A stretch of 64,000 bases of DNA from an uncultured Methanosarcinales archaeon (lineage in GTDB: Archaea; Nanobdellota; Nanobdellia; Woesearchaeales; GW2011-AR9): positions 277 through 64,276 of the forward strand of contig CAYFOH010000002.1 of the NCBI GenBank assembly GCA_964344755.1, written 5' to 3'. Position numbers and translations under genes: made by a program. This document shows positions 1,392 to 52,750 of the stretch, piece by piece. The notes beneath the pieces are model-generated. The model was not told the DNA's origin. It saw only the letters and a list, made by a program, of their open reading frames with translations, and did not search any database. Each line of letters begins with the position of its first letter. Within the stretch, counting starts at the first letter, position 1.

Positions 1392-1715
1392 CTAAACCTT
1401 ATTTAGAATCTCTTCTATTTTCTCTTTAAGAGCTGGCTTCTGATGATAACCGACAATTCTGTCAACTTCTTTGCCCTGTTTAAAGACAACAAGACAAGGA
1501 ATTCCTCTGATATTATTATCCTGCGCTATTTCAGGAAATTCTTCTGTTGAAATCTTAGCAAAATTTAGTTTATTGGTATAATCTTGGCTAATTTCTTCAA
1601 AAATAGGGGCCAACATTTTACAAGGGCCACACCATGAAGCCCAGAAATCTACAATCACTGGTTTATCAGATGAAATTAATTCCTTAAAAGTTTCTGCGTT
1701 TAGTTCTTTTACCAT
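1392..1715 (-). CDS. trxA: thioredoxin
   Basis: 107 aa with the canonical WCGPC active site and a thioredoxin-fold length. Confidence 0.9.
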
Positions 1716-1765
1716 GTTCGTAAGAGAAAAGAACTTCTACTTAAAGTTTACTCTTAATTTAAAAG

Positions 1766-1891
1766 GTATGTATTTAGTTAGATGGCCAAGAAGTTAATTA
1801 GATTCCTTCTTTTGCTTGCACAAAATTGATTTCCAGTTCTTACTTATTATTAGCTAGGACTGGTCTAATTAACGGCCAACTAAATACGTAC
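1766..1891. repeat. Palindromic intergenic repeat, copy 1. MITE-like family of about 126 bp with GTACGTATTTAGTT...AACTAAATACGTAC terminal inverted repeats
   Basis: Near-identical copies at 3778..3995, 42040..42165 and, reverse-complemented, 51283..51397. This copy lies between divergent trxA and a membrane-protein gene. Confidence 0.8.
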
Positions 1892-1951
1892 TTTAAAAGC
1901 AAACCTTTATAAAATGAAATAACGTTTCCTAATTATAAAAGAGGTTAAAAA

Positions 1952-3088
1952 TTGAAAAGAAAAGTATCTCTCTATGTTTTATTGGTTTTACTTATCGTAG
2001 CTTTACCAGTTGTTCTAGCTAGTGCTGAAGAAAATGATTGTTTGCTTTATTTCTATGGAAAAGATTGTAAAGATTGTGTAGATGCAAAAACCACTTTAAA
2101 TGATCTTAAAGTAAAATACCCAAATATTGAAATCAAGGAGAAAGAAGTTTATTATGACAGAAATAATTTCAGACTGTTACAGAAATATATGGAAGCCTTC
2201 AATGTGCCAGAAGATTCAAAAGGAGTTCCTATTGTTTTTTTAACCGACAGTTATTTTGTAGGAGAAGCCATTAACAATGTTTTAGAAGGAAGAATTTTAG
2301 AACATAAAGGCTCGTCCTGTGCATCTCACGAACAAGCTACAAAGGCTGTTGGTTTTGTAAGTAGTGGGAAATCTTATGATGTACAGGAAACTCTTAATTT
2401 TTTTATCGTTAATAAGAATGCCATCTTAGATAGCTTTCATTCGGAAGCTTTAGTAGCCCTACTTTTGCTGCTTTTCATTTTGATTCTAGTTAAAGAAAAG
2501 AAAAACGCACTAAAAAAGGGATTCTTGTTTATAGGTGGAAACTATGTTGTTTATTTTCTCTTTGGTCTGGGCCTTATACCCTGGTTAAATTACAGTTTAA
2601 TTAAAATTATTTTTGAAAAAATAGTGGCTGTTGCAGCTTTAATTTTTGGGTCCGTTCTTGTTTATAACTTTTTTAAAAAGTTAACTTGGCCAGCAGAAAT
2701 GAAAAAATATCAAAAATATAAAGAAATGATGTTATCTAACAAGGGCTTAACTTGTCTTGGCCTTTTGAGTGGTCTGTTAACCTTTAATTCGGAGAGTAAG
2801 ATATTTTATATCTTAAGAAATCTTATCCAAGAAGCGCCAGGGCGTCTAGGTGTTTTTATCTACATCATATATTACTGTTTAGCTTTTGTGGCTCTCATGT
2901 TAGTAGCCAATTTATTTATTTTTTATATAAGAAAGAAAATTGACGGGAAAGAAGAAGTTGAAAAAGGAACTGATGAAGAGAAAGTAGAAAAGAAGATAGA
3001 ACCGGAAAAGAAAAAAACAAACAAAAAAATGATCTTAAATATACCAAATGCTAGCCCACTCAGAAAGAAAAATGAAACAAAAAATTAG
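1952..3088 (+). CDS. Secreted thioredoxin-fold (CxxC) domain fused to a polytopic membrane domain; putative membrane thiol:disulfide oxidoreductase (DsbD/CcdA-like)
   Basis: Signal peptide, then YFYGKDCKDC (a CxxC in thioredoxin/glutaredoxin-like context), then five or more predicted TM helices with Cys in TM segments (LTCLG, YYCLAF). The C-terminal tail is K/E-rich. Confidence 0.4.
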   Translation: MKRKVSLYVLLVLLIVALPVVLASAEENDCLLYFYGKDCKDCVDAKTTLNDLKVKYPNIEIKEKEVYYDRNNFRLLQKYMEAFNVPEDSKGVPIVFLTDSYFVGEAINNVLEGRILEHKGSSCASHEQATKAVGFVSSGKSYDVQETLNFFIVNKNAILDSFHSEALVALLLLLFILILVKEKKNALKKGFLFIGGNYVVYFLFGLGLIPWLNYSLIKIIFEKIVAVAALIFGSVLVYNFFKKLTWPAEMKKYQKYKEMMLSNKGLTCLGLLSGLLTFNSESKIFYILRNLIQEAPGRLGVFIYIIYYCLAFVALMLVANLFIFYIRKKIDGKEEVEKGTDEEKVEKKIEPEKKKTNKKMILNIPNASPLRKKNETKN

Positions 3089-3168
3089 AGAACATTATTT
3101 GAGAGTACTAAGTTTTTCCTTAGGAATTAGTTTAATAATTCTGGGATTAATTTTGTTGTTTACCTAAA

Positions 3169-3789
3169 ATGAAAATTAAAAGAGTTTTTTCTATTCTAAA
3201 CAAACATCACCAACCAACAATGTTAGAGATGTTTAAAGATTATACGCCTTTCCAAATGGTAGTCATGACCCTGCTAAGTTCTAGAACTAAGGATACCACA
3301 ACAATACCTTTGGTTAAAAAATTATTTAAGAAGTTTCCAAGACCGCAAGATTTCGTAGCCACTCCTTTAGCTGACTTAGAGAAAGAATTGTATGGTATTG
3401 GGTTTTACAAAGTTAAAGCCAAACATGTTAAAGAACTGAGTAAAATCGTCCTAAAGAAAGACGTCCCAGATACTTTTGAAGAACTTATTAAACTTCCAGG
3501 AGTAGGTAGGAAAACAGCCAATTGTGTACTTGCCTATACTTTTAATAAACCAGCCATTGCTGTTGATATTCATGTCCATAGAATTGCTAATCGTTTAGGT
3601 TGGGTAAAAAGTGAAACCACTGAAGAGACTGAAGAACTTCTTAAGAAAAAGGTTCCTAAAGCAAATTGGATTGATGTCAACAAGCTACTGGTGGATCATG
3701 GCCAAAGGGTTTGTTTGCCAAGAAAACCAAAGTGTCCAGAATGCCCCATCATTAAATACTGTGTATACGGTCAGAGAGTACTTATTTAG
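3169..3789 (+). CDS. nth: endonuclease III (HhH-GPD DNA glycosylase/AP lyase) with a 4Fe-4S cluster loop
   Basis: HhH-GPD motif LPGVGRKTANCVLAYTF and a catalytic Asp. The C-terminal C-x6-C-x2-C-x5-C (CLPRKPKCPECPIIKYC) is typical of Nth. Confidence 0.85.
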   Translation: MKIKRVFSILNKHHQPTMLEMFKDYTPFQMVVMTLLSSRTKDTTTIPLVKKLFKKFPRPQDFVATPLADLEKELYGIGFYKVKAKHVKELSKIVLKKDVPDTFEELIKLPGVGRKTANCVLAYTFNKPAIAVDIHVHRIANRLGWVKSETTEETEELLKKKVPKANWIDVNKLLVDHGQRVCLPRKPKCPECPIIKYCVYGQRVLI

Positions 3790-3995
3790 TTAGATGGCCA
3801 AGAAATTAATTAGAAATCTTCTTTTGCTTGCACAAGTTTAATCTCCAGTTGCATACAATAATTAGCAAAAACTGGTCTATAATGAAGGCATTAATTCTTG
3901 ATATTTTACCTTGCCTGAGTTATATATGAAAGCGGAAATGTGAGGTACGAATATTTAGTGCTTTCAGTATAATTAATGACCAACTAAATACGTAC
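3778..3995. repeat. Palindromic intergenic repeat, copy 2 (composite, 218 bp). A full left arm and core are followed by a roughly 90-bp insert and a second minimal TIR-only unit
   Basis: Starts GTACTTATTTAGTTAGATGGCCAAG and ends CAACTAAATACGTAC. An internal gtacgaatatttagtg is a second left-TIR-like sequence. The element overlaps the stop codons of both convergent flanking genes (nth at 3787..3789, the minus-strand ORF ending at 3984). Confidence 0.75.
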
Positions 3996-4583
3996 AACAG
4001 AAACTGGTTTAAGTTCCCTCACCAAACTAACAAACTCTTTACCCAAAGACTTAATCAAAAGTTTCTGTTTTCTTGTAGTTTCTAATAAAGTTTTGAAATG
4101 TAAGTCAGCATTTAGTTCGGTAAACACTAAATTTTGCTCTAAATTCAGTTCAGATTGCAGGATTTCATTTATTTGATTGTAAGATGATTTAAGAGTTTTA
4201 ACTTCTTTTTCAAATTCAACAATTTCCTTTATTGTTTTGCTAATATTAAAAACTTCATCTTCAAGAAGATGTTTAGTGATGGTTTTGGCTTTACTTCTGT
4301 TATGATTAATCTTAGTCAACTTTAAATCTATAAGGTGTCTAGCATAAGATCTTAACTTATCATTCAAATATTGTTGGCGTTTTAGGTTAGAAAACTGTTT
4401 TTGTAATAATTTTAATTGTGGATTAATGGTTTCTCTAGTATTTTTGTTAAGGTTAGTAAGAAATGGTAAGTGGTGGTTTGTGGTTTCGGAGATGGGTTCT
4501 ACCCAACTAGACTGGAATTTATCTATGGTTTCCATAATGTTCGGCAAATCCTCTATCTCCTTTTTTAGTTCACGTAAACTCAT
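3984..4583 (-). CDS. hypothetical coiled-coil protein
   Basis: 199-aa ORF rich in heptad-like K/E/L segments. No recognisable catalytic motif. Confidence 0.35.
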   Translation of the reverse strand: MSLRELKKEIEDLPNIMETIDKFQSSWVEPISETTNHHLPFLTNLNKNTRETINPQLKLLQKQFSNLKRQQYLNDKLRSYARHLIDLKLTKINHNRSKAKTITKHLLEDEVFNISKTIKEIVEFEKEVKTLKSSYNQINEILQSELNLEQNLVFTELNADLHFKTLLETTRKQKLLIKSLGKEFVSLVRELKPVSVVRI

Positions 4584-27929: not shown

Positions 27930-29939
27930 ATGCAAGAAGAGAATAATGAGATGTTTGTGGAAAAACAAAAAGAAATTTTAGAAGGTAAGACAACCAACTT
28001 ACCTTTTAGTTTGAATGCTTTACAGGTAATTGCCAAACGTTATTTAGTTAAAGACGTTGAAGGCAAAATCACCGAATCACCAGAGGAGATGTTTGAAAGA
28101 GTAGCAAGATCCTTGGCACAAGTAGAAAACCAATACGGAAAATCTGCAGAAGAGATTGAAAAAATCCGTCAAGATTTCTTAAGGGTCCTAATCAACAGAG
28201 AATTCACTCCAGCCGGAAGAACTTTAGCTAATGCTGGAGGTCCTACAAGACTAGTTTCAAATTGTATTGTCCTGCATATTGAAGACAGCATGCAGGGAAT
28301 TTTTAAAACTCTACAAGAAGCTTCTTTGTTACAACAAGCTGGTTCCGGCTTAGGCTTCCCACTACATTTGATGAGGCCAGCAGGTTTTTCAACAATTAAA
28401 TCCAGAGGAGAAGCCTCAGGCCCTGTCAGTTTCCTAAAAGTGTATAACACTGCGTTTGGTGTCATCAAACAACAAAATAGACACGGAGCTAATATGGCTG
28501 TTATGAGAGTTGATCATCCAGACATTCTCGAGTTTGTTCATTGCAAGGAACAAGAGGGAGCTATTAAAAATTTTAACGTGTCAGTTGGTCTTACTAATGA
28601 GTTTATGGAACAAGTTAAAAGAGATTCCCCTGAACCTTGGATGTGTGAATGGAATGGCCAAAAAATGAAGCCAAGAAGGATTTATCGTAACCAAAATTTT
28701 AGTGTGACTAAAGTAGAAGAAGTAAACATGACTGCTCGACAGTTGTTTGAAGAAATTATTACTTGTGCTTGGAATAACGGAGAGCCAGGTTGTGTGTTTT
28801 TAGATACTGTAAACGATACTAACCCTGTACCTGGTTTAGGTAGAATTGAAGCATGTAATCCTTGCGGCGAACAGTTCCTTCACGACGGCGATGTGTGTAA
28901 CTTAGGTTCAATCATTCTAGAAAATTTTGTTACCAAAGATCGACAAATCGACTATAATAGATTAAGAGAAGTTACTAGAACAGCTGTAAGAATGTTAGAC
29001 AACGTCGTGGACTTATCAGACTTTCCAGTGGATAAGGTGAATAACACTTTTAGAGGCAATCGAAGGCTTGGTCTTGGAATCATGGGTTTTGCTGACATGC
29101 TTTACAAGTTAAGAATTCCTTATAACTCTGCCGAAGGATTTGATACTGCGGAAAGAGTCATGGGTTGTATTCAAAGATCCGCTAAGGAGATGTCAAGAGA
29201 ATTAGCTGAAGAGAAAGGTGTATTTCCTAACTGGGAAAAAAGTGTTTATTATCAGAAAGGTATCAAGATTAGGAATGCTGCTTTGACTAACATTGCTCCA
29301 ACTGGAACAATCAGTATGGTCTTTGATGTTTCTGGAGGAGTAGAACCTTACTTTGCTCTTGCTTACCATTATAAAGGTATTTTAGGTGGCGACGTAGAAC
29401 TTTACTATGTTAACAAACATCTTAGGTCTGAATTGGAAAAAAAAGGCTTGCACACACAAGAAATAATGGAAAAAATTTGTAAAGAAGGTACCTTACAAAA
29501 CATTCCAGAGATCCCGGAAGAAACTAAAAGGGTCTTTGTGACATCCATGGATATCTCTCCTGAGGATCATACTAGAATGCAAGCTGCTTTCCAAAGACAT
29601 ATTGATAATGCAATCTCTAAAACAATTAACTTCCCAAACGGTGCAACAAAGGAAGATGTTTTACAAGGCTATCTTCTAGCTTGGGAGTTAGGTTGTAAGG
29701 GATGCACTGTTTACAGGGATGGAAGTAGGGAACTACAGGTATTGAATTTAAATAAAGACAAAGAACAGAACAAGGAAAAAGAAACTAAAGAACAAGTAAT
29801 GGTGCAAACAACCACTGATAGAATCAATAAACATCAGATCATGCGTTCTGGAGAGTGTCCAGAATGTTCTGGTCAGATCAGAGTTTCTGAGGGTTGTTAC
29901 ACCTGTTTAGACTGCGGTCATTCAGCTTGTAGTCTTTAA
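27930..29939 (+). CDS. nrdJ: class II (adenosylcobalamin-dependent) ribonucleotide reductase with C-terminal zinc ribbon
   Basis: 669 aa in NrdJ/RNR class II layout. Carries the class II active-site motifs CNPCGEQ and VSNCIVL, and the C-terminal CPECSG...CYTCLDCGHSAC. Confidence 0.9.
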   Translation: MQEENNEMFVEKQKEILEGKTTNLPFSLNALQVIAKRYLVKDVEGKITESPEEMFERVARSLAQVENQYGKSAEEIEKIRQDFLRVLINREFTPAGRTLANAGGPTRLVSNCIVLHIEDSMQGIFKTLQEASLLQQAGSGLGFPLHLMRPAGFSTIKSRGEASGPVSFLKVYNTAFGVIKQQNRHGANMAVMRVDHPDILEFVHCKEQEGAIKNFNVSVGLTNEFMEQVKRDSPEPWMCEWNGQKMKPRRIYRNQNFSVTKVEEVNMTARQLFEEIITCAWNNGEPGCVFLDTVNDTNPVPGLGRIEACNPCGEQFLHDGDVCNLGSIILENFVTKDRQIDYNRLREVTRTAVRMLDNVVDLSDFPVDKVNNTFRGNRRLGLGIMGFADMLYKLRIPYNSAEGFDTAERVMGCIQRSAKEMSRELAEEKGVFPNWEKSVYYQKGIKIRNAALTNIAPTGTISMVFDVSGGVEPYFALAYHYKGILGGDVELYYVNKHLRSELEKKGLHTQEIMEKICKEGTLQNIPEIPEETKRVFVTSMDISPEDHTRMQAAFQRHIDNAISKTINFPNGATKEDVLQGYLLAWELGCKGCTVYRDGSRELQVLNLNKDKEQNKEKETKEQVMVQTTTDRINKHQIMRSGECPECSGQIRVSEGCYTCLDCGHSACSL

Positions 29940-29947
29940 AAAAACAA

Positions 29948-31978
29948 ATGGCTTTAAAGAAAGTAATTAAAAGAGACAAAAGGGTTGTTCCTTTTGATCT
30001 AAATAGAATAAGTGATGCTATCTTTAGAGCCGCAATCACAGTCGGTGGGAAAGACAAAGATCTGGCTTTTTCTTTGGCCGAAGAAATTGCTCAAATCTTG
30101 GAATTAAAGTTTGAAAGTGAAGTGCCAACAGTTGAAAACGTACAAGACGTGGTAGAAAAAACTCTTATTAAGAGAGGACATGCTAAAACTGCTAAAGCTT
30201 ATATTTTACACCGACATCTTAAAGACGAAGAAAGAAGAAAAAGAACCCTTATCCTAGGAGTTGATCAACCAGAAGAAAACTTAAACTTTTCTAATCAAGC
30301 TCTTAAAATATTAGAAAGAAGATATTTGCTTCGGGATGACCAAGGAAAGGTTGTGGAAACGCCTAAAGGCATGTTGAGAAGGGTAGCCAAAAATATTGCC
30401 AAGGCTGACCTAAAATATGGGAAAGAAGATGTCAAAGAGATTGTTGAAGAATTTTTTGAAGTCATGGCTGAGTTGAAGTTTTTACCTAATTCGCCCACCC
30501 TAATGAACGCTGGAACAAAGACTCAGCAACTAAGCTCTTGTTTTGTTCTTCCCATTGAAGACAACATGGAAGGAATTTTTGGAACACTTAAAGATTCGGC
30601 AGTTATCCATCAAAGAGGGAGCGGAACTGGCTTTTCTTTCTCTCGTCTGCGTCCAAAAGGAGATCGTGTTAGAAGAAACCTAGGCGTAGCAGCTGGCCCA
30701 ATAGCTTTCCTAACAATCTATGATAAAAGTTTAGAGGCCATTAAGCAAGGAGGTATTCGTCCTGGCGCCAACATGGCTGTAATGAGGGTAGATCATCCAG
30801 ACATCATCCGTTTCATTGAATCAAAAAGAGATAAAAACAAACTTAAAAATTTTAACATATCTGTAGCCGTGACTGATCGTTTCATGCAGGCAGTTGAAAA
30901 TGATAGGGAATACTACATTACTAATCCACGAACCAACAAATATTCAGGGAGATTAAGAGCAAGAGATGTTTTTGCGTTAATAACACAAAACGCTTGGAAG
31001 ACTGGTGACCCTGGTTTGATTTTCCTTGATGAAATCAATCGTAAACATCCTGCCAAGCATTTAGGACTTATTGAAACAACTAATCAGTGCGGGGAAGCTC
31101 CATTACTTCCCTACGAAGGATGTGCTTTGGGTTCTATAAATCTTAACAAATTTTTTAAAGAAGGAAAGGTCGATTGGAAAGATTTAAAAAAAACTGTTCA
31201 AACGGCAGTACATTTTCTAGACAATGTTATTGATATGAATTCTTATCCTAAAAAAACAATTGAAGAAGCCACCAAAAGAACAAGAAAGTTTGGGTTAGGG
31301 ATGATGGGTTTTGCAGATCTCCTCTGTAAACTTGATCTTTCCTACGGCTCTAAAGAAAGCCTAGAATTTGCTGAAGAGTTAATCTCTTTTATTAAAAAAA
31401 TTGCTTACGAGTCTTCAATGAAACTAGCTGAAGAAAGGGGTGTTTGTCCTGCCTGGGAAGGTTCAGACCACCAAAAACAAGGAAGAAAAATGAGGAACAT
31501 GACTTGTCTTTCTATTTCTCCCACCGGAACAATAAGCATTTTGGCTGATGCCTCTTCTGGTTGTGAACCTTTATTTGCTATTTCCTATCAGAAGATGGTT
31601 TTTGGTGACACAGATTTGGTTTATTTAAATCAAGATTTTAAAAAGTTAGCCGTTGAAAAAGAATTTTATTCACCAGAACTTGTAAGAAAAATATCTCTCA
31701 GTGGAACCATCCAACATCTTAAAGAAATTCCAAAACATGTAAGAGACATATTCGTTACAGCACAGGACATTAGCCCCGAAGAACATATTAAAATGCAAGC
31801 AGTGCTACAAAAAGAAGTTGACAATTCCATCTCTAAAACAATTAATTTTGAAAAAACAGCTTCCATTAAGGACGTAGAAAATGCCTATCTGTTAGCCTGG
31901 AAGAACAAATGTAAGGGAATCACCATTTACAGAGATGGAAGCTACGAAGACCAAGTTATAACTTTGGGGGAGGGATAA
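29948..31978 (+). CDS. nrdJ: class II ribonucleotide reductase paralog with N-terminal ATP-cone, no C-terminal zinc ribbon
   Basis: N-terminal VIKRDKRVVPFDLNRISDAI is an ATP-cone. The rest is collinear with the upstream NrdJ, with the matching motifs TNQCGEAP and SSCFVLPIED. Confidence 0.85.
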   Translation: MALKKVIKRDKRVVPFDLNRISDAIFRAAITVGGKDKDLAFSLAEEIAQILELKFESEVPTVENVQDVVEKTLIKRGHAKTAKAYILHRHLKDEERRKRTLILGVDQPEENLNFSNQALKILERRYLLRDDQGKVVETPKGMLRRVAKNIAKADLKYGKEDVKEIVEEFFEVMAELKFLPNSPTLMNAGTKTQQLSSCFVLPIEDNMEGIFGTLKDSAVIHQRGSGTGFSFSRLRPKGDRVRRNLGVAAGPIAFLTIYDKSLEAIKQGGIRPGANMAVMRVDHPDIIRFIESKRDKNKLKNFNISVAVTDRFMQAVENDREYYITNPRTNKYSGRLRARDVFALITQNAWKTGDPGLIFLDEINRKHPAKHLGLIETTNQCGEAPLLPYEGCALGSINLNKFFKEGKVDWKDLKKTVQTAVHFLDNVIDMNSYPKKTIEEATKRTRKFGLGMMGFADLLCKLDLSYGSKESLEFAEELISFIKKIAYESSMKLAEERGVCPAWEGSDHQKQGRKMRNMTCLSISPTGTISILADASSGCEPLFAISYQKMVFGDTDLVYLNQDFKKLAVEKEFYSPELVRKISLSGTIQHLKEIPKHVRDIFVTAQDISPEEHIKMQAVLQKEVDNSISKTINFEKTASIKDVENAYLLAWKNKCKGITIYRDGSYEDQVITLGEG

Positions 31979-41714: not shown

Positions 41715-41996
41715 TTATGGATTAAAAACAATATCGTCTAAAGAAGCTACGGAACCCCTCAACTGCCCAGGTGATTTAAATGGATCTGAACCCAAATTTT
41801 GATCATTTCTTGTTAAATACAAAGTTACTTCAAAACTAGGTGCTTCTGTAATTGATAAGCCATATTTTTTCATAAAATCTGTAGCAACGTCACCTCTGAT
41901 AATAACAGTAGCGTAAGGTTCACTGATGGGCACTTCATAATGGGTATGTTTGTCAATTACCTGTTTTCCGCGAATAGTAATTTGGCGTTCTATCAT
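41715..41996 (-). CDS. hypothetical small protein
   Basis: 93-aa ORF with no recognised motif. Confidence 0.3.
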   Translation of the reverse strand: MIERQITIRGKQVIDKHTHYEVPISEPYATVIIRGDVATDFMKKYGLSITEAPSFEVTLYLTRNDQNLGSDPFKSPGQLRGSVASLDDIVFNP

Positions 41997-42039
41997 ATTA
42001 TGTTAAAACTATGATTCTTTATAAAATTATTCTAAAATA

Positions 42040-42165
42040 GTACGTATTTAGTTAGATGGCCAAGAAGTTAATTAGAATTCTTCTTTTGCTTGCACAAAGT
42101 TGATCTCCAGTTTCAAAATATAATTAGCAAAAACTGGGCTAATTAACGGCCAACTAAACACGTAC
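42040..42165. repeat. palindromic intergenic repeat, copy 3
   Basis: GTACGTATTTAGTTAGATGGCCAAGAAGTTAATTAG...CTAATTAACGGCCAACTAAACACGTAC, 126 bp, between two minus-strand genes. Confidence 0.8.
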
Positions 42166-42204
42166 CTAAAATATCTAACTTTTTTAGGATGTTCAAAGTT
42201 TTAC

Positions 42205-43005
42205 TTAAAGGAACTCTTGCACATTCCTAAAATCAACCTTGACAAATTTCTTAAAATTTAAACCCTTTTCCTTAGCTTGTTGTAAAGCTTTCTTAACATG
42301 GGTACTGCCTTTAGGTAATTTAAAACCAGCTAGCTCACTAAGATAGTCCATTTGTGCAAGAGCTTCTGCCCTAGCCAAAACAGAAGCTGCAGCCACTTCC
42401 AAATATTTACTTTCAGCTTTGGTTTCTTTTATATCCCCAACCTTACAGCCAGGATAAAGATCAACCACATGCTTACCAGGCAAAAGAAATTTAGCACACT
42501 TAAGATGCAGCTTGTTTAGCAACTCCGTAACTTTACCGCTTTTATTGTACTCTTCTGGTAAAATACTAATCACTTTACAAGTGTTTTTCTTCTTAACTTC
42601 AATAGCCATCTTTAAAATTTCTTGGTCATTTAACTTTTTACTGTCAGCAACTCCTATCTTTAACAATTCTTTCCTACCTTTGTCATCAGCTTTTACAGCC
42701 GCCACCACCAAGCCACCAAAGGTGTCACCTTTTAAAGATTCATCACTGCCAATGATCCAACCTTCTTCTTTTCTGAAAGAAATCTTCTTCTGTTTTTTTC
42801 CTATACAAAATTTATCTAAATCTTCTTCAACATCTCCAGTGTCTTTACCTTGTACCAATAACTTTCCCGTAGTATAATGAACCAAATTAATGTTGTCCTT
42901 CTTCAAACGTAAATCTTCATGAACGGTTTTAGGAGTAATTAATTTGTAACCCTTTTTAATTAATTTCTCTACGTCTTCTTTACTTACATCCTTGTAAACA
43001 GTCAT
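42205..43005 (-). CDS. rnhC: RNase HIII-like ribonuclease (N-terminal auxiliary domain + RNase H fold)
   Basis: IIGSDESLKGDTFGGLVVAAV matches the RNase HIII catalytic DESGKGDYFGPLVV block. VADSKKL and KYLEVAAASVLA match the downstream DSK and AASI motifs. Confidence 0.55.
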   Translation of the reverse strand: MTVYKDVSKEDVEKLIKKGYKLITPKTVHEDLRLKKDNINLVHYTTGKLLVQGKDTGDVEEDLDKFCIGKKQKKISFRKEEGWIIGSDESLKGDTFGGLVVAAVKADDKGRKELLKIGVADSKKLNDQEILKMAIEVKKKNTCKVISILPEEYNKSGKVTELLNKLHLKCAKFLLPGKHVVDLYPGCKVGDIKETKAESKYLEVAAASVLARAEALAQMDYLSELAGFKLPKGSTHVKKALQQAKEKGLNFKKFVKVDFRNVQEFL

Positions 43006-43043: not shown

Positions 43044-43700
43044 TTAGAAATCAGCCAAACTTCTCTGTAAATTCTTTTCTCTAACCTTCTTAAAAGATTG
43101 CCAACTTTTCCTAAAAAGGTCTGAATGTTCTTCATAATAATTCTCTAAAAAAAGCTGTGTTTTAGGATCCGACATATAACCTGACCCAAAATCAAGACCT
43201 AACTCTTTTTTTAGTTTCTCTATTTGTTTATCTCTTATCACTTTAGCAACAACCGAAGCAGCAGCCACAACAACGTGGTTTAAATCAGCCTTGTGTTCCA
43301 TTAAAAGTTCTACTTCTTTTTTCTTTAATTTCGATAAAAAATAATTTTTATAAGATAAAATATTAACACTAGGACAATCAACAATAACTTTATCAGCATC
43401 CAACTCAGAAACCAGTCTGGCTGACGTATCTGCTTCCAAATAATTTAGGTTAGTACTAGGATCATTTAAAGCTAGATCAATCGCACCCGGCTCGATCACT
43501 TCAATTCTAAAATCATGGACAATGTCTCTTATTCTTTCGAACAAATCCTCTCTTGTTTGAGGGTCAAGAAGCTTACTGTCTTTAACACCAATCCATTCTA
43601 GCTTTCGTATATCTTCTTCTTTAAAGGATAAAGCTACCATTACTAAAGGTCCTATGATCGGCCCTCTACCTGCCTCATCGATACCAACAACTAATTTCAT
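43044..43700 (-). CDS. rnhB: ribonuclease HII
   Basis: VGIDEAGRGPIIGPLVMVAL (DEAGRG motif), DSKLL and AASVVAK motifs. Confidence 0.85.
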   Translation of the reverse strand: MKLVVGIDEAGRGPIIGPLVMVALSFKEEDIRKLEWIGVKDSKLLDPQTREDLFERIRDIVHDFRIEVIEPGAIDLALNDPSTNLNYLEADTSARLVSELDADKVIVDCPSVNILSYKNYFLSKLKKKEVELLMEHKADLNHVVVAAASVVAKVIRDKQIEKLKKELGLDFGSGYMSDPKTQLFLENYYEEHSDLFRKSWQSFKKVREKNLQRSLADF

Positions 43701-47099: not shown

Positions 47100-47143
47100 G
47101 TTTTTTAGTAATGGTTTTAAGTATATAAAATTAATCTAAGAAG

Positions 47144-47429
47144 TGGCTTCATCCGGAATAGAGTAAATATGTATACTAACACACCCTACTCCATTTTTGT
47201 TTTCTTAACCGTCGCCGCCATTATTACTACATTTTACGCTAGTAATAATGTAGTGGCGCGATGGAACTGATTATGTATCTATACGAAGTATAGAGTTATA
47301 GTCAGTGAAATAGGGTAAGAAAACAAAAACTACGTCTGGCCATGCAGTGATATGCATAGCATATCCCAGCATATCACGGCACAGACGGTTGTGTTAATAT
47401 ACATTATTGTGTTATTCCGGATGTGGCCA
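47144..47429. repeat. structured non-coding element flanked by 18-bp imperfect inverted repeats (GTGGCTTCATCCGGAATA ... TATTCCGGATGTGGCCA)
   Basis: A 286-bp GC-richer segment with no ORF. It contains several internal hairpins: CGCCATTATTACTACATT/AATGTAGTGGCG, CTATAC-gaa-GTATAG and GTGATATGC...GCATATCAC. Confidence 0.5.
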
Positions 47430-47477
47430 TCAGGGCAGAAAAATTTATAAACCTTTTTTGGTTAACATTAACCAAAA

Positions 47478-49726: not shown

Positions 49727-51223
49727 CTAAGAACAAGTTTCAAAAATCTTCCCCATTCTAATGCTGAAAGACACTTGAGGAAAGTTAGGATGAGTAATCA
49801 CAGCACTTTCTTGGTTTTCTCTTAGTGTTATGACAGCTTCGTTAATAATACGACCAGTGTCTTTTTTGATGATGCTAATAGGAACAACAGCATCTTCTCC
49901 TATGCAATGATCTGGAGCCTGTTTAATCTTCCATTCCAAAGCACCGGCTGCTGTGTAGCTGCCAGATCCTGGCTGAACACGGTAAACTTCCCCATCACTA
50001 GTTGAAAGATTTAGAGAATGATAATTACACATTCTTGCACAATTATCTGATCCCTGATACAAACCAGCTAACGTCCCGCACGTTCCACCAATACAATATT
50101 CATTAGAACCACACTGTAAGTTGTCTGTACAATCCTCCCCTTGGCCCACTTGTTCCAAACCTTGAGATCTTGCTTCAGTTACATCACAAATACCGTTAGT
50201 ATTCTCATCTAAACAACAGCTATCACCTTCAGGTGTTGGAATATGGGGAGATGTACATTCCACCGAATAACTAACTCTCTTACTTTCATTATCAATATGA
50301 AGGTCCGTGAAAATAGCTTTACCCACGACACCACTAAGAATAAAAAAGACGCCTAAAATTAAAAGTATAGAAACACCTGCAATTGCCAAGATCTTATTTC
50401 TATCATAATTTTTAGTTGTCTGTTTTGTTTTAGTTTGGGGTTGGCCTCTTTTTTTAAGATATTTTTTATAGTTTTTTTCCGTCACTTCTTGATAAACTTT
50501 GTCCACGTCCTGTTTTGACCAGCCAGCATTTAACAAATTTTGTTTAATTTGAGCCTCCTTTAAACCACCTTTGATTTGATTGTTGACATAAGAGTGGACA
50601 TTTGAAACCTTACTTCTGCTACCCATCCCTTTCCTGTTTAAGTAATGAAATACAATACTACCGGCTCCAAGAACAAAGATTATAAAGAAAATAATTGAAA
50701 GTTTACGATTTGAAGCCTGTTTCTTTAAAGTTTCTTGGATTTGATTTAAACTTGATTCAGTAATGTTCAGATTTTCCTCCAAACCAGAAATACCTAAAGC
50801 AACTATATTAAGCTCAGAATCAAGCCTCGTTTCAACTTCATCAACATTTCTTTGTAAAGTACTTATACTATTCTTTAGACGATTAACATCTGTTTTAACA
50901 CTAGAAATATCTGATTTCAAAGAAATAATCTCCTCTCTGGCCTTAGAGACATCCTCTTCTAACAACAAAATCTCTTCCTCTAAGGGCGTGAGTTCTAAGA
51001 AATTATCCGTTTCATTGTTACTTACAACAGTTTGTTCTTCTGTTACTAAAAAACAAGTACCTTCAACAATGTCACAATACATCTCTTCCCCTTCGAAAGC
51101 TTGAGCCAGACACTCTTGGTCGGATTGACAAACTATTTGAGTATCATAATCAGCAATTGTAGAGAAAGTTGAAACTAATAATAACAAAACAAGAACTATC
51201 AAAAGATTGTTTTTACCCATCAT
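49727..51223 (-). CDS. secreted/membrane-anchored Cys-rich coiled-coil protein with conserved C-terminal domain (paralog of 6973..7560)
   Basis: Signal peptide, a Cys-rich segment, a coiled coil, two TM helices, a second Cys-rich segment, then GSYTAAGALEWKIK...ITHPNFPQVSF...ETCS. This is homologous to the C-terminus of the 6973 protein. Confidence 0.5.
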   Translation of the reverse strand: MMGKNNLLIVLVLLLLVSTFSTIADYDTQIVCQSDQECLAQAFEGEEMYCDIVEGTCFLVTEEQTVVSNNETDNFLELTPLEEEILLLEEDVSKAREEIISLKSDISSVKTDVNRLKNSISTLQRNVDEVETRLDSELNIVALGISGLEENLNITESSLNQIQETLKKQASNRKLSIIFFIIFVLGAGSIVFHYLNRKGMGSRSKVSNVHSYVNNQIKGGLKEAQIKQNLLNAGWSKQDVDKVYQEVTEKNYKKYLKKRGQPQTKTKQTTKNYDRNKILAIAGVSILLILGVFFILSGVVGKAIFTDLHIDNESKRVSYSVECTSPHIPTPEGDSCCLDENTNGICDVTEARSQGLEQVGQGEDCTDNLQCGSNEYCIGGTCGTLAGLYQGSDNCARMCNYHSLNLSTSDGEVYRVQPGSGSYTAAGALEWKIKQAPDHCIGEDAVVPISIIKKDTGRIINEAVITLRENQESAVITHPNFPQVSFSIRMGKIFETCS

Positions 51224-51282
51224 TCCTCTTTTAAACTAAGACTAAGGAGATTTTTTAGCTTTATATAATTTTGGTTTTATCG

Positions 51283-51397
51283 AACGTATTTAGTTGGCCG
51301 TTAATTATACCAGTTTTTGTTAATTATAGTTTAAAACTGGAGATTAACTTTGTGCAAGCAAAAGAAGGAATTTAATTAACTTCTTGGCCATCTAACT
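51283..51397. repeat. palindromic intergenic repeat, copy 4 (reverse orientation, 115 bp)
   Basis: The reverse complement reads GTACGTATTTAGTTAGATGGCCAAGAAGTTAATTAAATTCC...ATAATTAACGGCCAACTAAATACGTTC. It lies between a divergent gene pair. Confidence 0.8.
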
Positions 51398-51454
51398 AAA
51401 TACGTACATTTTACTGAAGTAAAATTTATATAACCAATCAGACTTAAAGGGAAA

Positions 51455-52750
51455 ATGTTAGACATTAATTTACTAAGAGAAAAACCAGAAATTGTTAAAG
51501 CCTCTGAAGAAAAAAGAGGCAAGGACCCAAAAAATGTTGATAAAGTCCTTTCTTTAGATAATAGATGGAAAAAACAATTAAAAGAAGTAGAAAAACTTAA
51601 ACACAAACGTAATGTTGTTTCTGAAGAAATAAACAAAGCTAAAAAAGCTAAGGATGAAAAAACAGCAGTCAAAAAAATTAAAGAAATGAAGGCTGTTGCT
51701 GAAGAGATTAAAAAACAGGACGAAAATACAAACAGCATTCTTGAAAAAAGAAACAATTTGCTTAAACAAATAGGCAATATTTTACATCAATCAGTACCAA
51801 TAGGTAAGGACGATTCAGAAAATGTAGAAATAAAAAAGGTTGGAAAAATTCCTTCTTTTAATTTTCCAATTAAAGATCATATTGAACTTGCTCTAGATCT
51901 TGATTTAATAGAACTAGATACCGCAGCTAAAACAACAGGTTCAAGATTCTATTATCTTAAAAATGAAGCAGTATTACTTAGCCAAGCTTTACAAAGATTT
52001 GCTCTGGATAGAATGATTAAAAAAGGGTATACCTTAGTTCAACCTCCTTTTATGTTGAATAAGTCCACTCTTGAAGGTGGTGTTAATCTTTCTGAATTTG
52101 AAGACACTATTTACAAGATTGAAGACGAAGATCTTTACTTGATTGCCACTTCAGAACATCCTCTGATAGCCTTAAAGAAGAACGAAATAATTGAAGAAAA
52201 GGATTTGCCTCTAAAAATATGTGGTATAAGTGCCTGTTTTAGAAAAGAGCTAGGAACTCACGGAAGGGATGACAAAGGGATTTTTAGGGTACACCATTTT
52301 AATAAAGTTGAACAAATTGTTTATTGTAAACCAGAAAACTCATATAAATATTTTGAAGAATTACAAAAAAATGCAGAAGAATTATTTAAGGAACTAGAAA
52401 TACCATTTAGAGTAGTTCAAATTTGTACAGGAGATATTGGAAATAAACAGGCTTTACAGTATGACATTGAAGCCTGGATGCCTGGACAAAATGATAAAAA
52501 AGGAAATTACAGAGAAGTTACTTCATGTAGTAACTGTTTGGACTACCAAGCTGTAACCCTAAAAACAAAACTCTTACGTAAAGACGGTCAAACCAAAGAG
52601 TTTGTCCACATTTTAAATAATACCGCTCTAACAGACACAAGACCAATTATTGCCATTATAGAAAATTTTCAGACTAAAAAAGGAACTGTTAAAATCCCTA
52701 AAGCCTTGTGGCCCTATATGCATGGAATCAAAGAGATAGGTAAAAAGTAA
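51455..52750 (+). CDS. serS: seryl-tRNA synthetase
   Basis: N-terminal coiled-coil arm, then class II aaRS motifs (FRKE, GTHGRDDKGIFRVHHFNKVEQ). Confidence 0.9.
   Translation: MLDINLLREKPEIVKASEEKRGKDPKNVDKVLSLDNRWKKQLKEVEKLKHKRNVVSEEINKAKKAKDEKTAVKKIKEMKAVAEEIKKQDENTNSILEKRNNLLKQIGNILHQSVPIGKDDSENVEIKKVGKIPSFNFPIKDHIELALDLDLIELDTAAKTTGSRFYYLKNEAVLLSQALQRFALDRMIKKGYTLVQPPFMLNKSTLEGGVNLSEFEDTIYKIEDEDLYLIATSEHPLIALKKNEIIEEKDLPLKICGISACFRKELGTHGRDDKGIFRVHHFNKVEQIVYCKPENSYKYFEELQKNAEELFKELEIPFRVVQICTGDIGNKQALQYDIEAWMPGQNDKKGNYREVTSCSNCLDYQAVTLKTKLLRKDGQTKEFVHILNNTALTDTRPIIAIIENFQTKKGTVKIPKALWPYMHGIKEIGKK

Follow-up and report, generated by a model that had tools for sequence, protein, structure and literature searches.

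The miniature transposable elements with inverted repeats (MITEs) of prokaryotes, such as SM1-SM4 of Sulfolobus, the MITEs of Haloquadratum and the Correia/NEMIS elements of Neisseria, lie mostly between genes, form hairpins and rely on a transposase provided in trans. A large survey noted that a Woesearchaea genome carries MITEs at the high density of 105 per Mb (PMC11602168). Here we describe a family of such elements, represented by four copies in a 64,000-nucleotide stretch of the archaeal contig CAYFOH010000002.1 (positions 277 to 64,276; the whole of this stretch is hereafter called the window) and by others in metagenomes. The family shares the intergenic habit and the folding of the known MITEs, and presumably their reliance on an enzyme encoded elsewhere, yet it departs from them in three respects: it duplicates 8 bp of its target where Correia elements duplicate TA; a single pair of ends is common to many unrelated interiors, in hosts of 32-44% GC; and its point of insertion keeps a fixed 6-nt spacing from a TATA box. 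By all testable criteria the element is a genuine mobile MITE. Its integration is, very probably, mechanistically directed to a fixed distance from the core promoter, composed of the B recognition element (BRE) and the TATA box, however that site is read. In the literature, of which our coverage is incomplete, we met no description of this family, and no case of a transposable element, in archaea or bacteria, whose insertion point keeps a constant distance from a TATA box.

The four copies in the window are as follows.

1766..1891, + strand: copy c1, 126 bp, with the long arm at its left end
3778..3995, + strand: copy c2, 218 bp
42040..42165, + strand: copy c3, 126 bp
51282..51407, - strand: copy c4, 126 bp, in reversed orientation

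The same four copies had been listed in an earlier reading of the letters alone (the original prediction), and their number stands, as the sequences that define them occur far above chance. The invariant interior 18-mer CTTCTTTTGCTTGCACAA is found four times in the window against 0.19 expected, and the 14-bp terminal inverted repeat (TIR; consensus GTACGTATTTAGTT) is found nine times with up to two mismatches against 0.7 expected, eight of these being element ends and the ninth a chance match within a transporter gene. Copy c4 had formerly been drawn at 51283..51397; its right end was placed 10 nt short, and its first position is 51282. Pairwise identity among the four copies is 83-91%. Relatives were sought in metagenomes with the pattern GTACGTATTTAGTTN{0,4}GGCC, which requires exact matches over 18 bases and returned 77 loci; 53 paired elements could be extracted from these, 48 of them distinct.

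What is the evidence that these elements move? Perfect 8-bp direct repeats stand directly outside the TIRs in 28 of 47 non-redundant insertions, 11 more match at seven of eight positions, and only a duplication length of 8 bp fits. For the window copies, at which the original prediction had proposed to look for target-site duplications, the outcome is divided, with perfect repeats at c1 and c3 and degenerate ones at c2 and c4 (all unstranded):

1758..1765: left duplication of c1, TTTAAAAG
1892..1899: right duplication of c1, TTTAAAAG, a perfect match
42032..42039 (left) and 42166-42173 (right): duplication of c3, CTAAAATA, a perfect match
Flanks of c2: degenerate duplication, GTCAGAGA / AACAGAAA, matching at 5/8
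51274-51281 and 51408-51415: degenerate duplication of c4, GTTTTATC / ATTTTACT, matching at 5/8

Full-length copies that are 97-99% identical to one another are found at sites with unrelated flanks, and the presence/absence differences whose lack would, by the original prediction, have told against mobility do occur at orthologous sites, three filled/empty pairs having been recovered. At the first, the filled locus L069 reads CAATCCTG, the 270-bp element, and then TAATCCTG-CAAAAC-TTTATATA, and the empty locus L138, its orthologue within the same 90%-identity protein cluster, reads a single CAATCCTG-CAAAAC-TTTATATA. The second pair consists of L116 (filled) and L140 (empty). The third concerns c4, the one window copy whose site could be compared with an empty orthologue: in L136 and L137 the seryl-tRNA synthetase is 77% identical and the divergent neighbor is syntenic (E 9e-22), and at the empty L136 site two TATA boxes stand 24 nt apart with no element between them, and subtracting the element and one duplication from c4 would leave 23 nt between the corresponding boxes there. 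The duplications, the near-identical copies at unrelated sites and the empty sites together support the mobile, non-autonomous, MITE-like element that had been proposed among other readings. One of those others was a REP/BIME-like repeat (repetitive extragenic palindrome or bacterial interspersed mosaic element), that is, a palindrome spread by a RAYT transposase of the IS200/IS605 tyrosine type. The elements are indeed palindromic, mostly extragenic and multi-copy; however, REP sequences measure 20-40 nt and REP/BIME repeats make no target duplication, whereas the present elements span 47-327 bp within 8-bp duplications, and neither a Y1 nor any other transposase was found among the 30 larger open reading frames (ORFs) of the window. 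We regard such an origin as hardly conceivable.

The distinctive feature of the family is its choice of target. A TATA-like octamer (TTTATAAA, TTTATATA or TATATAAA, with at most one mismatch) begins 14 nt from the element end in 23 of 94 flanks, and each of the other offsets from 0 to 51 holds only 0-3 flanks. When flanks were clustered by homology, leaving 44 independent sites, an octamer at offset 14 on one side was present in 22 of them at <=1 mismatch and in 33 at <=2 mismatches, against backgrounds of 1.2% and 6.8%, respectively (binomial P ~1e-30). These 14 nt comprise the 8-bp duplication and a 6-nt spacer. The sequence logo of reconstructed empty sites holds information solely at the last duplicated base (C at 20 of the 35 sites, T at none) and at the next 14 positions, reading C-n-n-A-A-n-n-TTTATAAA; it fits the archaeal BRE, the consensus of which (cRnaAnt) lies directly upstream of the TATA box. 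That the octamer is the promoter element of this genome follows from its position in the window, where it peaks 29-31 nt before start codons, the peak holding 22 of 66 genes. Since TATA boxes peak at that distance, the window promoters appear to be of archaeal type and mostly leaderless; a scan for sigma-70 promoters and intrinsic terminators was uninformative, the host being an archaeon.

On the TATA side of the elements, the first gene points outward, with its start at offset 43-48, or 21-26 nt past the TATA box; each of the ten starts tested (10/10) coincides exactly with a gene call of the protein collection. Judging from these spacings, the element enters the upstream edge of the BRE, some 45 nt before the transcription start (about -45). 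Duplication of the target leaves the BRE/TATA core promoter intact. At two orthologous promoters of genomes that are only ~50% identical in protein, different subfamilies of the element occupy the same offset, a pattern that fits repeated independent hits on one target. In the window, about 3 of about 33 promoters are occupied by an element, and a C at -7 is present in 57% of targets against 30% of the window promoters. The original prediction had recognized that copies sit in promoter regions and missed the exact rule, namely, an element end 14 nt from a TATA box, which three of the four window copies (c1, c3 and c4) obey. Their promoters are the following.

1900..1913, + strand: promoter at c1, with a BRE-sized spacer CAAACC at 1900-1905 and TATA box TTTATAAA at 1906-1913; gene 1952..3088 reads away
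42018..42031, - strand: promoter at c3, with TATA box TTTATAAA at 42018-42025 and spacer at 42026-42031; leaderless gene 41715..41996 (-) reads away
51260..51273, - strand: promoter at c4, with TATA box at 51260-51267 and spacer at 51268-51273; gene 49727..51223 (-) reads away
51425..51432, + strand: second, divergent TATA box at c4, 17 nt from its other end, with seryl-tRNA synthetase gene 51455..52750

The exception, c2, lies between convergent genes and has no TATA box at offset 14. A further reading of the boxes, a TATA box driving transcription into the element, as for an RNA gene with its own promoter, was tried and set aside in view of the BRE logo and of the genes on the far side, and because the spacings that such an inward reading gives are inconsistent across the four window copies.

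Does this regularity reflect the choice of an enzyme or the survival of a few insertions among many? Intergenic space is very small, and selection must therefore shape the insertions that survive. Carried to its end, this argument holds that the element inserts nearly at random into AT-rich DNA and that the apparent targeting is survivorship in the gap between the upstream gene and the BRE of compact genomes. Several facts speak for it, and thus against directed integration. In 14-15 of the 31 TATA-linked sites, about half, ORFs of at least 100 aa extend up to the target from the flank opposite the TATA box, and purifying selection could have sharpened the distribution there. At the empty site L138 (1440-1500), a leaderless gene has its BRE/TATA within the 3′ end of the coding sequence of the gene upstream, only 6 nt separating that stop from the next start codon. 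Moreover, the sample consists of fixed insertions only, each a survivor seen in assemblies, and no fresh insertion events were observed. Survivorship does not, however, account for precision at the level of a single nucleotide, with 23 flanks at offset 14 and 0-3 at offsets 12, 13, 15, 16 and beyond. At 16 of the 31 TATA-linked sites, non-coding DNA further upstream would offer 13 to 1005 nt of room, and offset 14 is nevertheless kept, and offsets 15-40, which would be as harmless as 14 where room exists, are empty. Nor are gene ends fully protected, considering that the insertions at c2 and L069 truncate a neighboring gene. Because selection does not explain single-nucleotide precision, we judge the choice of site to be very probably mechanistic and think it improbable that survivorship alone produced the pattern.

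Other observations also count against the directed integration that we favor. About a quarter of the sites, c2 included, have no TATA box at offset 14, and the TATA octamer is nearly palindromic, the polarity of the promoters being read from the BRE logo and gene positions rather than from mapped starts. The enzyme itself has eluded us. No pair of TIRs 0.4-4 kb apart occurs in the window or in any metagenome locus, the unpaired arms being contig ends, indel-bearing MITEs or chance matches in GC-rich DNA; no multi-copy ORF occurs among the 271 ORFs of the metagenome loci; the 30 larger window ORFs have no transposase match in Pfam or NCBIfam; and no autonomous partner was found in the window, the 77 loci or viral contigs, the scans of the collections requiring exact 18-base matches and missing any partner with slightly different ends.

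The TIRs, together with a duplication of constant length (8 bp), point to a putative DDE-type enzyme. Insertion sequence (IS) families with 8-bp duplications include IS6, ISL3, IS66/ISBst12, IS256, IS1595, ISH6 and others; the GTAC... terminus of the present element bears a tentative resemblance to the 'GTAA' end of IS66. In the mechanism we envisage, a transposase supplied in trans would move the element and, cutting its target with an 8-bp stagger, would generate the duplications observed. The 8-bp target lies upstream of an archaeal TATA box, at a distance of 6 nt, and the BRE begins with the final base of the duplication. Landing at this edge would be harmless in gene-dense genomes, and the element could multiply without destroying genes, the sequence upstream of the BRE being displaced by 120-330 bp. 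The site could be recognized in two ways. The transposase may read the BRE/TATA sequence directly and cut at a fixed distance from it, following the logic of TnsD in Tn7, or it may dock onto promoter DNA that is bound and bent by TBP/TFB, following the logic of Ty3 and TFIIIB. It is possible, although not the likelier case, that the archaeal pre-initiation complex guides the transposase, which would then integrate at the upstream edge of the contact between TFB and the BRE.

The arms of the window copies are asymmetric. The long arm reads TIR14-AGAT-GGCC-AAGAA-GTTAATTAG and the short arm TIR14-GGCC-GTTAATTAG, and the two pair over ~28 bp (14 + 4 + 9-10), with AGAT and AAGAA bulging from the same arm; this replaces the ~35 bp and one bulge given previously. 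The 14-bp TIRs, described as perfect, are so in the consensus, each actual copy bearing a mismatch in one arm (c1 GTATGT, c2 GTACTT, c3 AAACACG, c4 ACGTTC). A bulge-helix-bulge, the substrate of the archaeal splicing endonuclease in which two 3-nt bulges on opposite strands enclose a 4-bp helix, was also considered and rejected, as AGAT and AAGAA, although they flank a helix of 4 bp (GGCC), share one strand. Copy c2 consists of the 126-bp element and an extra block of 92 nt (~3880-3971) that is unique in the window, is a weak hairpin former and holds the TIR-like GGTACGAATATTTAGTG; the block may stem from a nested insertion or a partial duplication. The copies have no coding capacity, their arms holding stop codons and no ORF of at least 50 aa lying inside them, and they had all been called intergenic. 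For c2 this does not strictly hold, given the stop codons in its TIRs:

3787-3789 (TAG) and 3984-3986 (CTA): stop codons inside the c2 TIRs, where both convergent genes end

The genes that c2 thus terminates are the HhH-GPD glycosylase gene 3169..3789, the final three residues of which (V-L-I) are encoded by the element, and ORF 3984..4583 (-). Independent gene calls, in L124, agree, ending 12 nt into each arm.

Every window copy folds into a long hairpin on either strand, as had been expected, with z of -4.4 to -6.8 in RNA folding and of -4.5 to -6.0 in DNA folding. In 30 of the 48 distinct elements, the inner 10-mers of the two arms match at 9/10 positions or better; they are identical or nearly so within a subfamily, yet 22 different ones exist across subfamilies, and some changes appear on both arms (GTTCGTCTCG vs GTTCATCTCG, and the G-to-A of c2). 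Such matching would be expected if the transposase bound a two-part end that has to be the same on both sides of the element, and equally under selection for a hairpin or cruciform. The strong folding, the conservation of the inner 10-mers and the invariant 18-nt interior block common to the window copies are also what one would expect of a structured small-RNA gene or of a cis-acting hairpin (terminator, insulator or operator) that the host keeps for its function, and archaeal regulators often bind at about -45. Against this account, the interiors are unrelated between subfamilies and the ends alone are conserved. In addition, the elements face the promoter in both orientations (16 one way and 9 the other, P = 0.23), the mismatched arm pairs of the window copies (T.G, T.C, A.C and T.T) follow no strand-consistent wobble pattern, and the duplications and empty sites show insertion. 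At the gathering threshold, searches of Rfam 15 gave two tRNAs and nothing for the elements in the window, and no match in eight metagenome loci; window positions 1700-4100 gave none at E up to 1 either, so that the repeated small-RNA gene suggested earlier finds no Rfam match at any threshold. A host-maintained RNA or cis-acting hairpin is very unlikely to be what these elements are, although a secondary, acquired function may exist.

Across the family, the mobile element can be described as a non-coding cassette with the ends GTACGTATTTAGTT[0-4 nt]GGCC followed by the subfamily-specific inner 10-mer. Distinct elements measure 117-327 bp, apart from a minimal copy of 47 bp, and fall into discrete length classes of 121/122, 126 (window only), 130/131, 144/145, 149/150, 153/154, 170-183, 201-217, 270 and 327 bp. 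Every length class conserves the 18 outermost bases of both ends; the interiors are unrelated or modular. How such diversity arises is illustrated by L058 (4470-4681) and L077 (5065-5276), which share a core of the 153 type at a closely related or orthologous site and have gained ~59-nt double-hairpin modules (...hairpin-GCACAA-hairpin-TTTGTG) at different places in it. Since different modules were gained on a shared core, interiors grow by secondary insertions; the modules, which are also present in L069, L072, L073, L083 and L113, suggest that very small units, either mobile or produced by slippage, form a second layer. At the other extreme, minimal copies of 47-49 nt (L106:840-886 and L096:829-877) are almost arms alone, and the one in L106 keeps the 14-nt distance to a TATATAAA box. 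Host GC across the family is 32-44.5%.

A sister family was also encountered, with the TIR GTACGTATTAAGTT (one base different), without GGCC and with an 8-bp duplication, TTAAAAAA, at L103. Its copies often adjoin a copy of the main family.

L054:7-189, L103:1048-1263 and L143:710-892: copies of the sister family
L092:4540, L055:2295 and L094:2540: single ends of the sister family

The host of the window elements is a DPANN archaeon of Woesearchaeota/Nanoarchaeia type, because the nearest seryl-tRNA synthetases, 78% identical, come from sources named Candidatus Woesearchaeota or Nanoarchaeia. The window, with a GC content of 33%, encodes aIF2-gamma (598 bits), Rad50 and a family-B DNA polymerase (PolB), and its contig arrangement is seen again in assemblies of PRJEB17505. 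Three Logan contigs from the same population (L125, L126 and L129; ERR2281800/ERR2281803) stop 29-34 nt from a MITE end; given that short-read contigs break at the element, the genome must hold many more copies than four. The distribution of the family is patchy. The seryl-tRNA synthetase relatives L130-L137 (77-78% identical) carry no copy, and no match to the family was found in viral contigs, phage records or plasmid records. The core CTTCTTTTGCTTGCACAA has 46 matches in the genome collection, all apparently single chance ones in unrelated organisms, and the two inspected, both from Micrarchaeota, lie in coding sequence. With chance matches only, the subfamily and the genome of the window are absent from the GTDB representatives.

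Several other features of the window deserve mention. An intergenic stretch of 293 nt (47140-47432), closed by inverted arms of 43 nt (47144-47186 / 47387-47429) and single-copy in the window, folds at -122.9 kcal/mol with z = -11.1 relative to shuffled sequences; at E up to 1, Rfam gives three weak matches to microRNA models (E 0.17-0.53, far under gathering), none of them credible, and the stretch may be a structured RNA that has so far escaped recognition, or one more foldback element. ORF 24377..24949 (-) looks like a repeat-containing protein, with 4-5 tandem repeats of 54 nt that are 82-85% identical (24382-24667) and a second internal repeat pair of 70 nt at 24727/24850. Two pairs of genes are tandem paralogues, namely, two class II (B12-dependent) ribonucleotide reductase genes (27930..29939 and 29948..31978) and two RNase HII genes (42205..43005 and 43044..43700).

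In practical terms, short-read assemblies break at these repeats, and neighboring genes may take their stop codons from them, as at c2 and L069. If the precision of insertion is mechanistic, the family would further show how selfish DNA multiplies in gene-dense DPANN genomes without killing genes, and its insertions, by marking the edge of the BRE, would serve as a natural promoter probe in uncultivated lineages that lack transcription-start maps. It would also make the reading of TBP/TFB-bound DNA by a transposase a testable hypothesis and point to an enzyme usable for promoter-proximal insertion.

As a MITE the element is ordinary; its promoter-anchored integration is a remarkable and distinct behavior, with partial parallels in other kinds of mobile DNA. 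IS1397 and ISKpn1, which insert in the loops of REP/BIME, are likewise strict in choosing a short, recurring extragenic motif; unlike in their case, the present target is a promoter and not a repeat, and insertion occurs beside the motif, not inside it. Another parallel is Tn7, in which TnsD directs insertion at attTn7: in both, the cue lies beside the insertion point at a fixed distance, remains intact and marks a safe site. Tn7, which makes a 5-bp duplication, has a single site per genome set by the 3′ end of a gene, whereas the cue used here is a generic promoter element with hundreds of sites per genome. Further parallels are Ty3, which is positioned by TFIIIB (TBP-Brf1) at Pol III starts, TRE5-A of Dictyostelium and Tf1 of S. 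pombe, all of which keep a nearly constant distance, on insertion, from a core promoter that TBP and a TFIIB-family factor occupy and, like the present element, live in compact genomes and avoid damage to genes. They are retrotransposons that employ an integrase or target-primed reverse transcription, whereas ours is an archaeal DNA element for which tethering to TBP/TFB is hypothetical. To our knowledge, targeting via DNA bound by TBP/TFB-type factors is otherwise found only in eukaryotic retroelements. Should guidance by the pre-initiation complex prove true, the family would represent an archaeal DNA-transposon counterpart of Ty3/TFIIIB and the first case of promoter-complex-tethered transposition outside eukaryotes.
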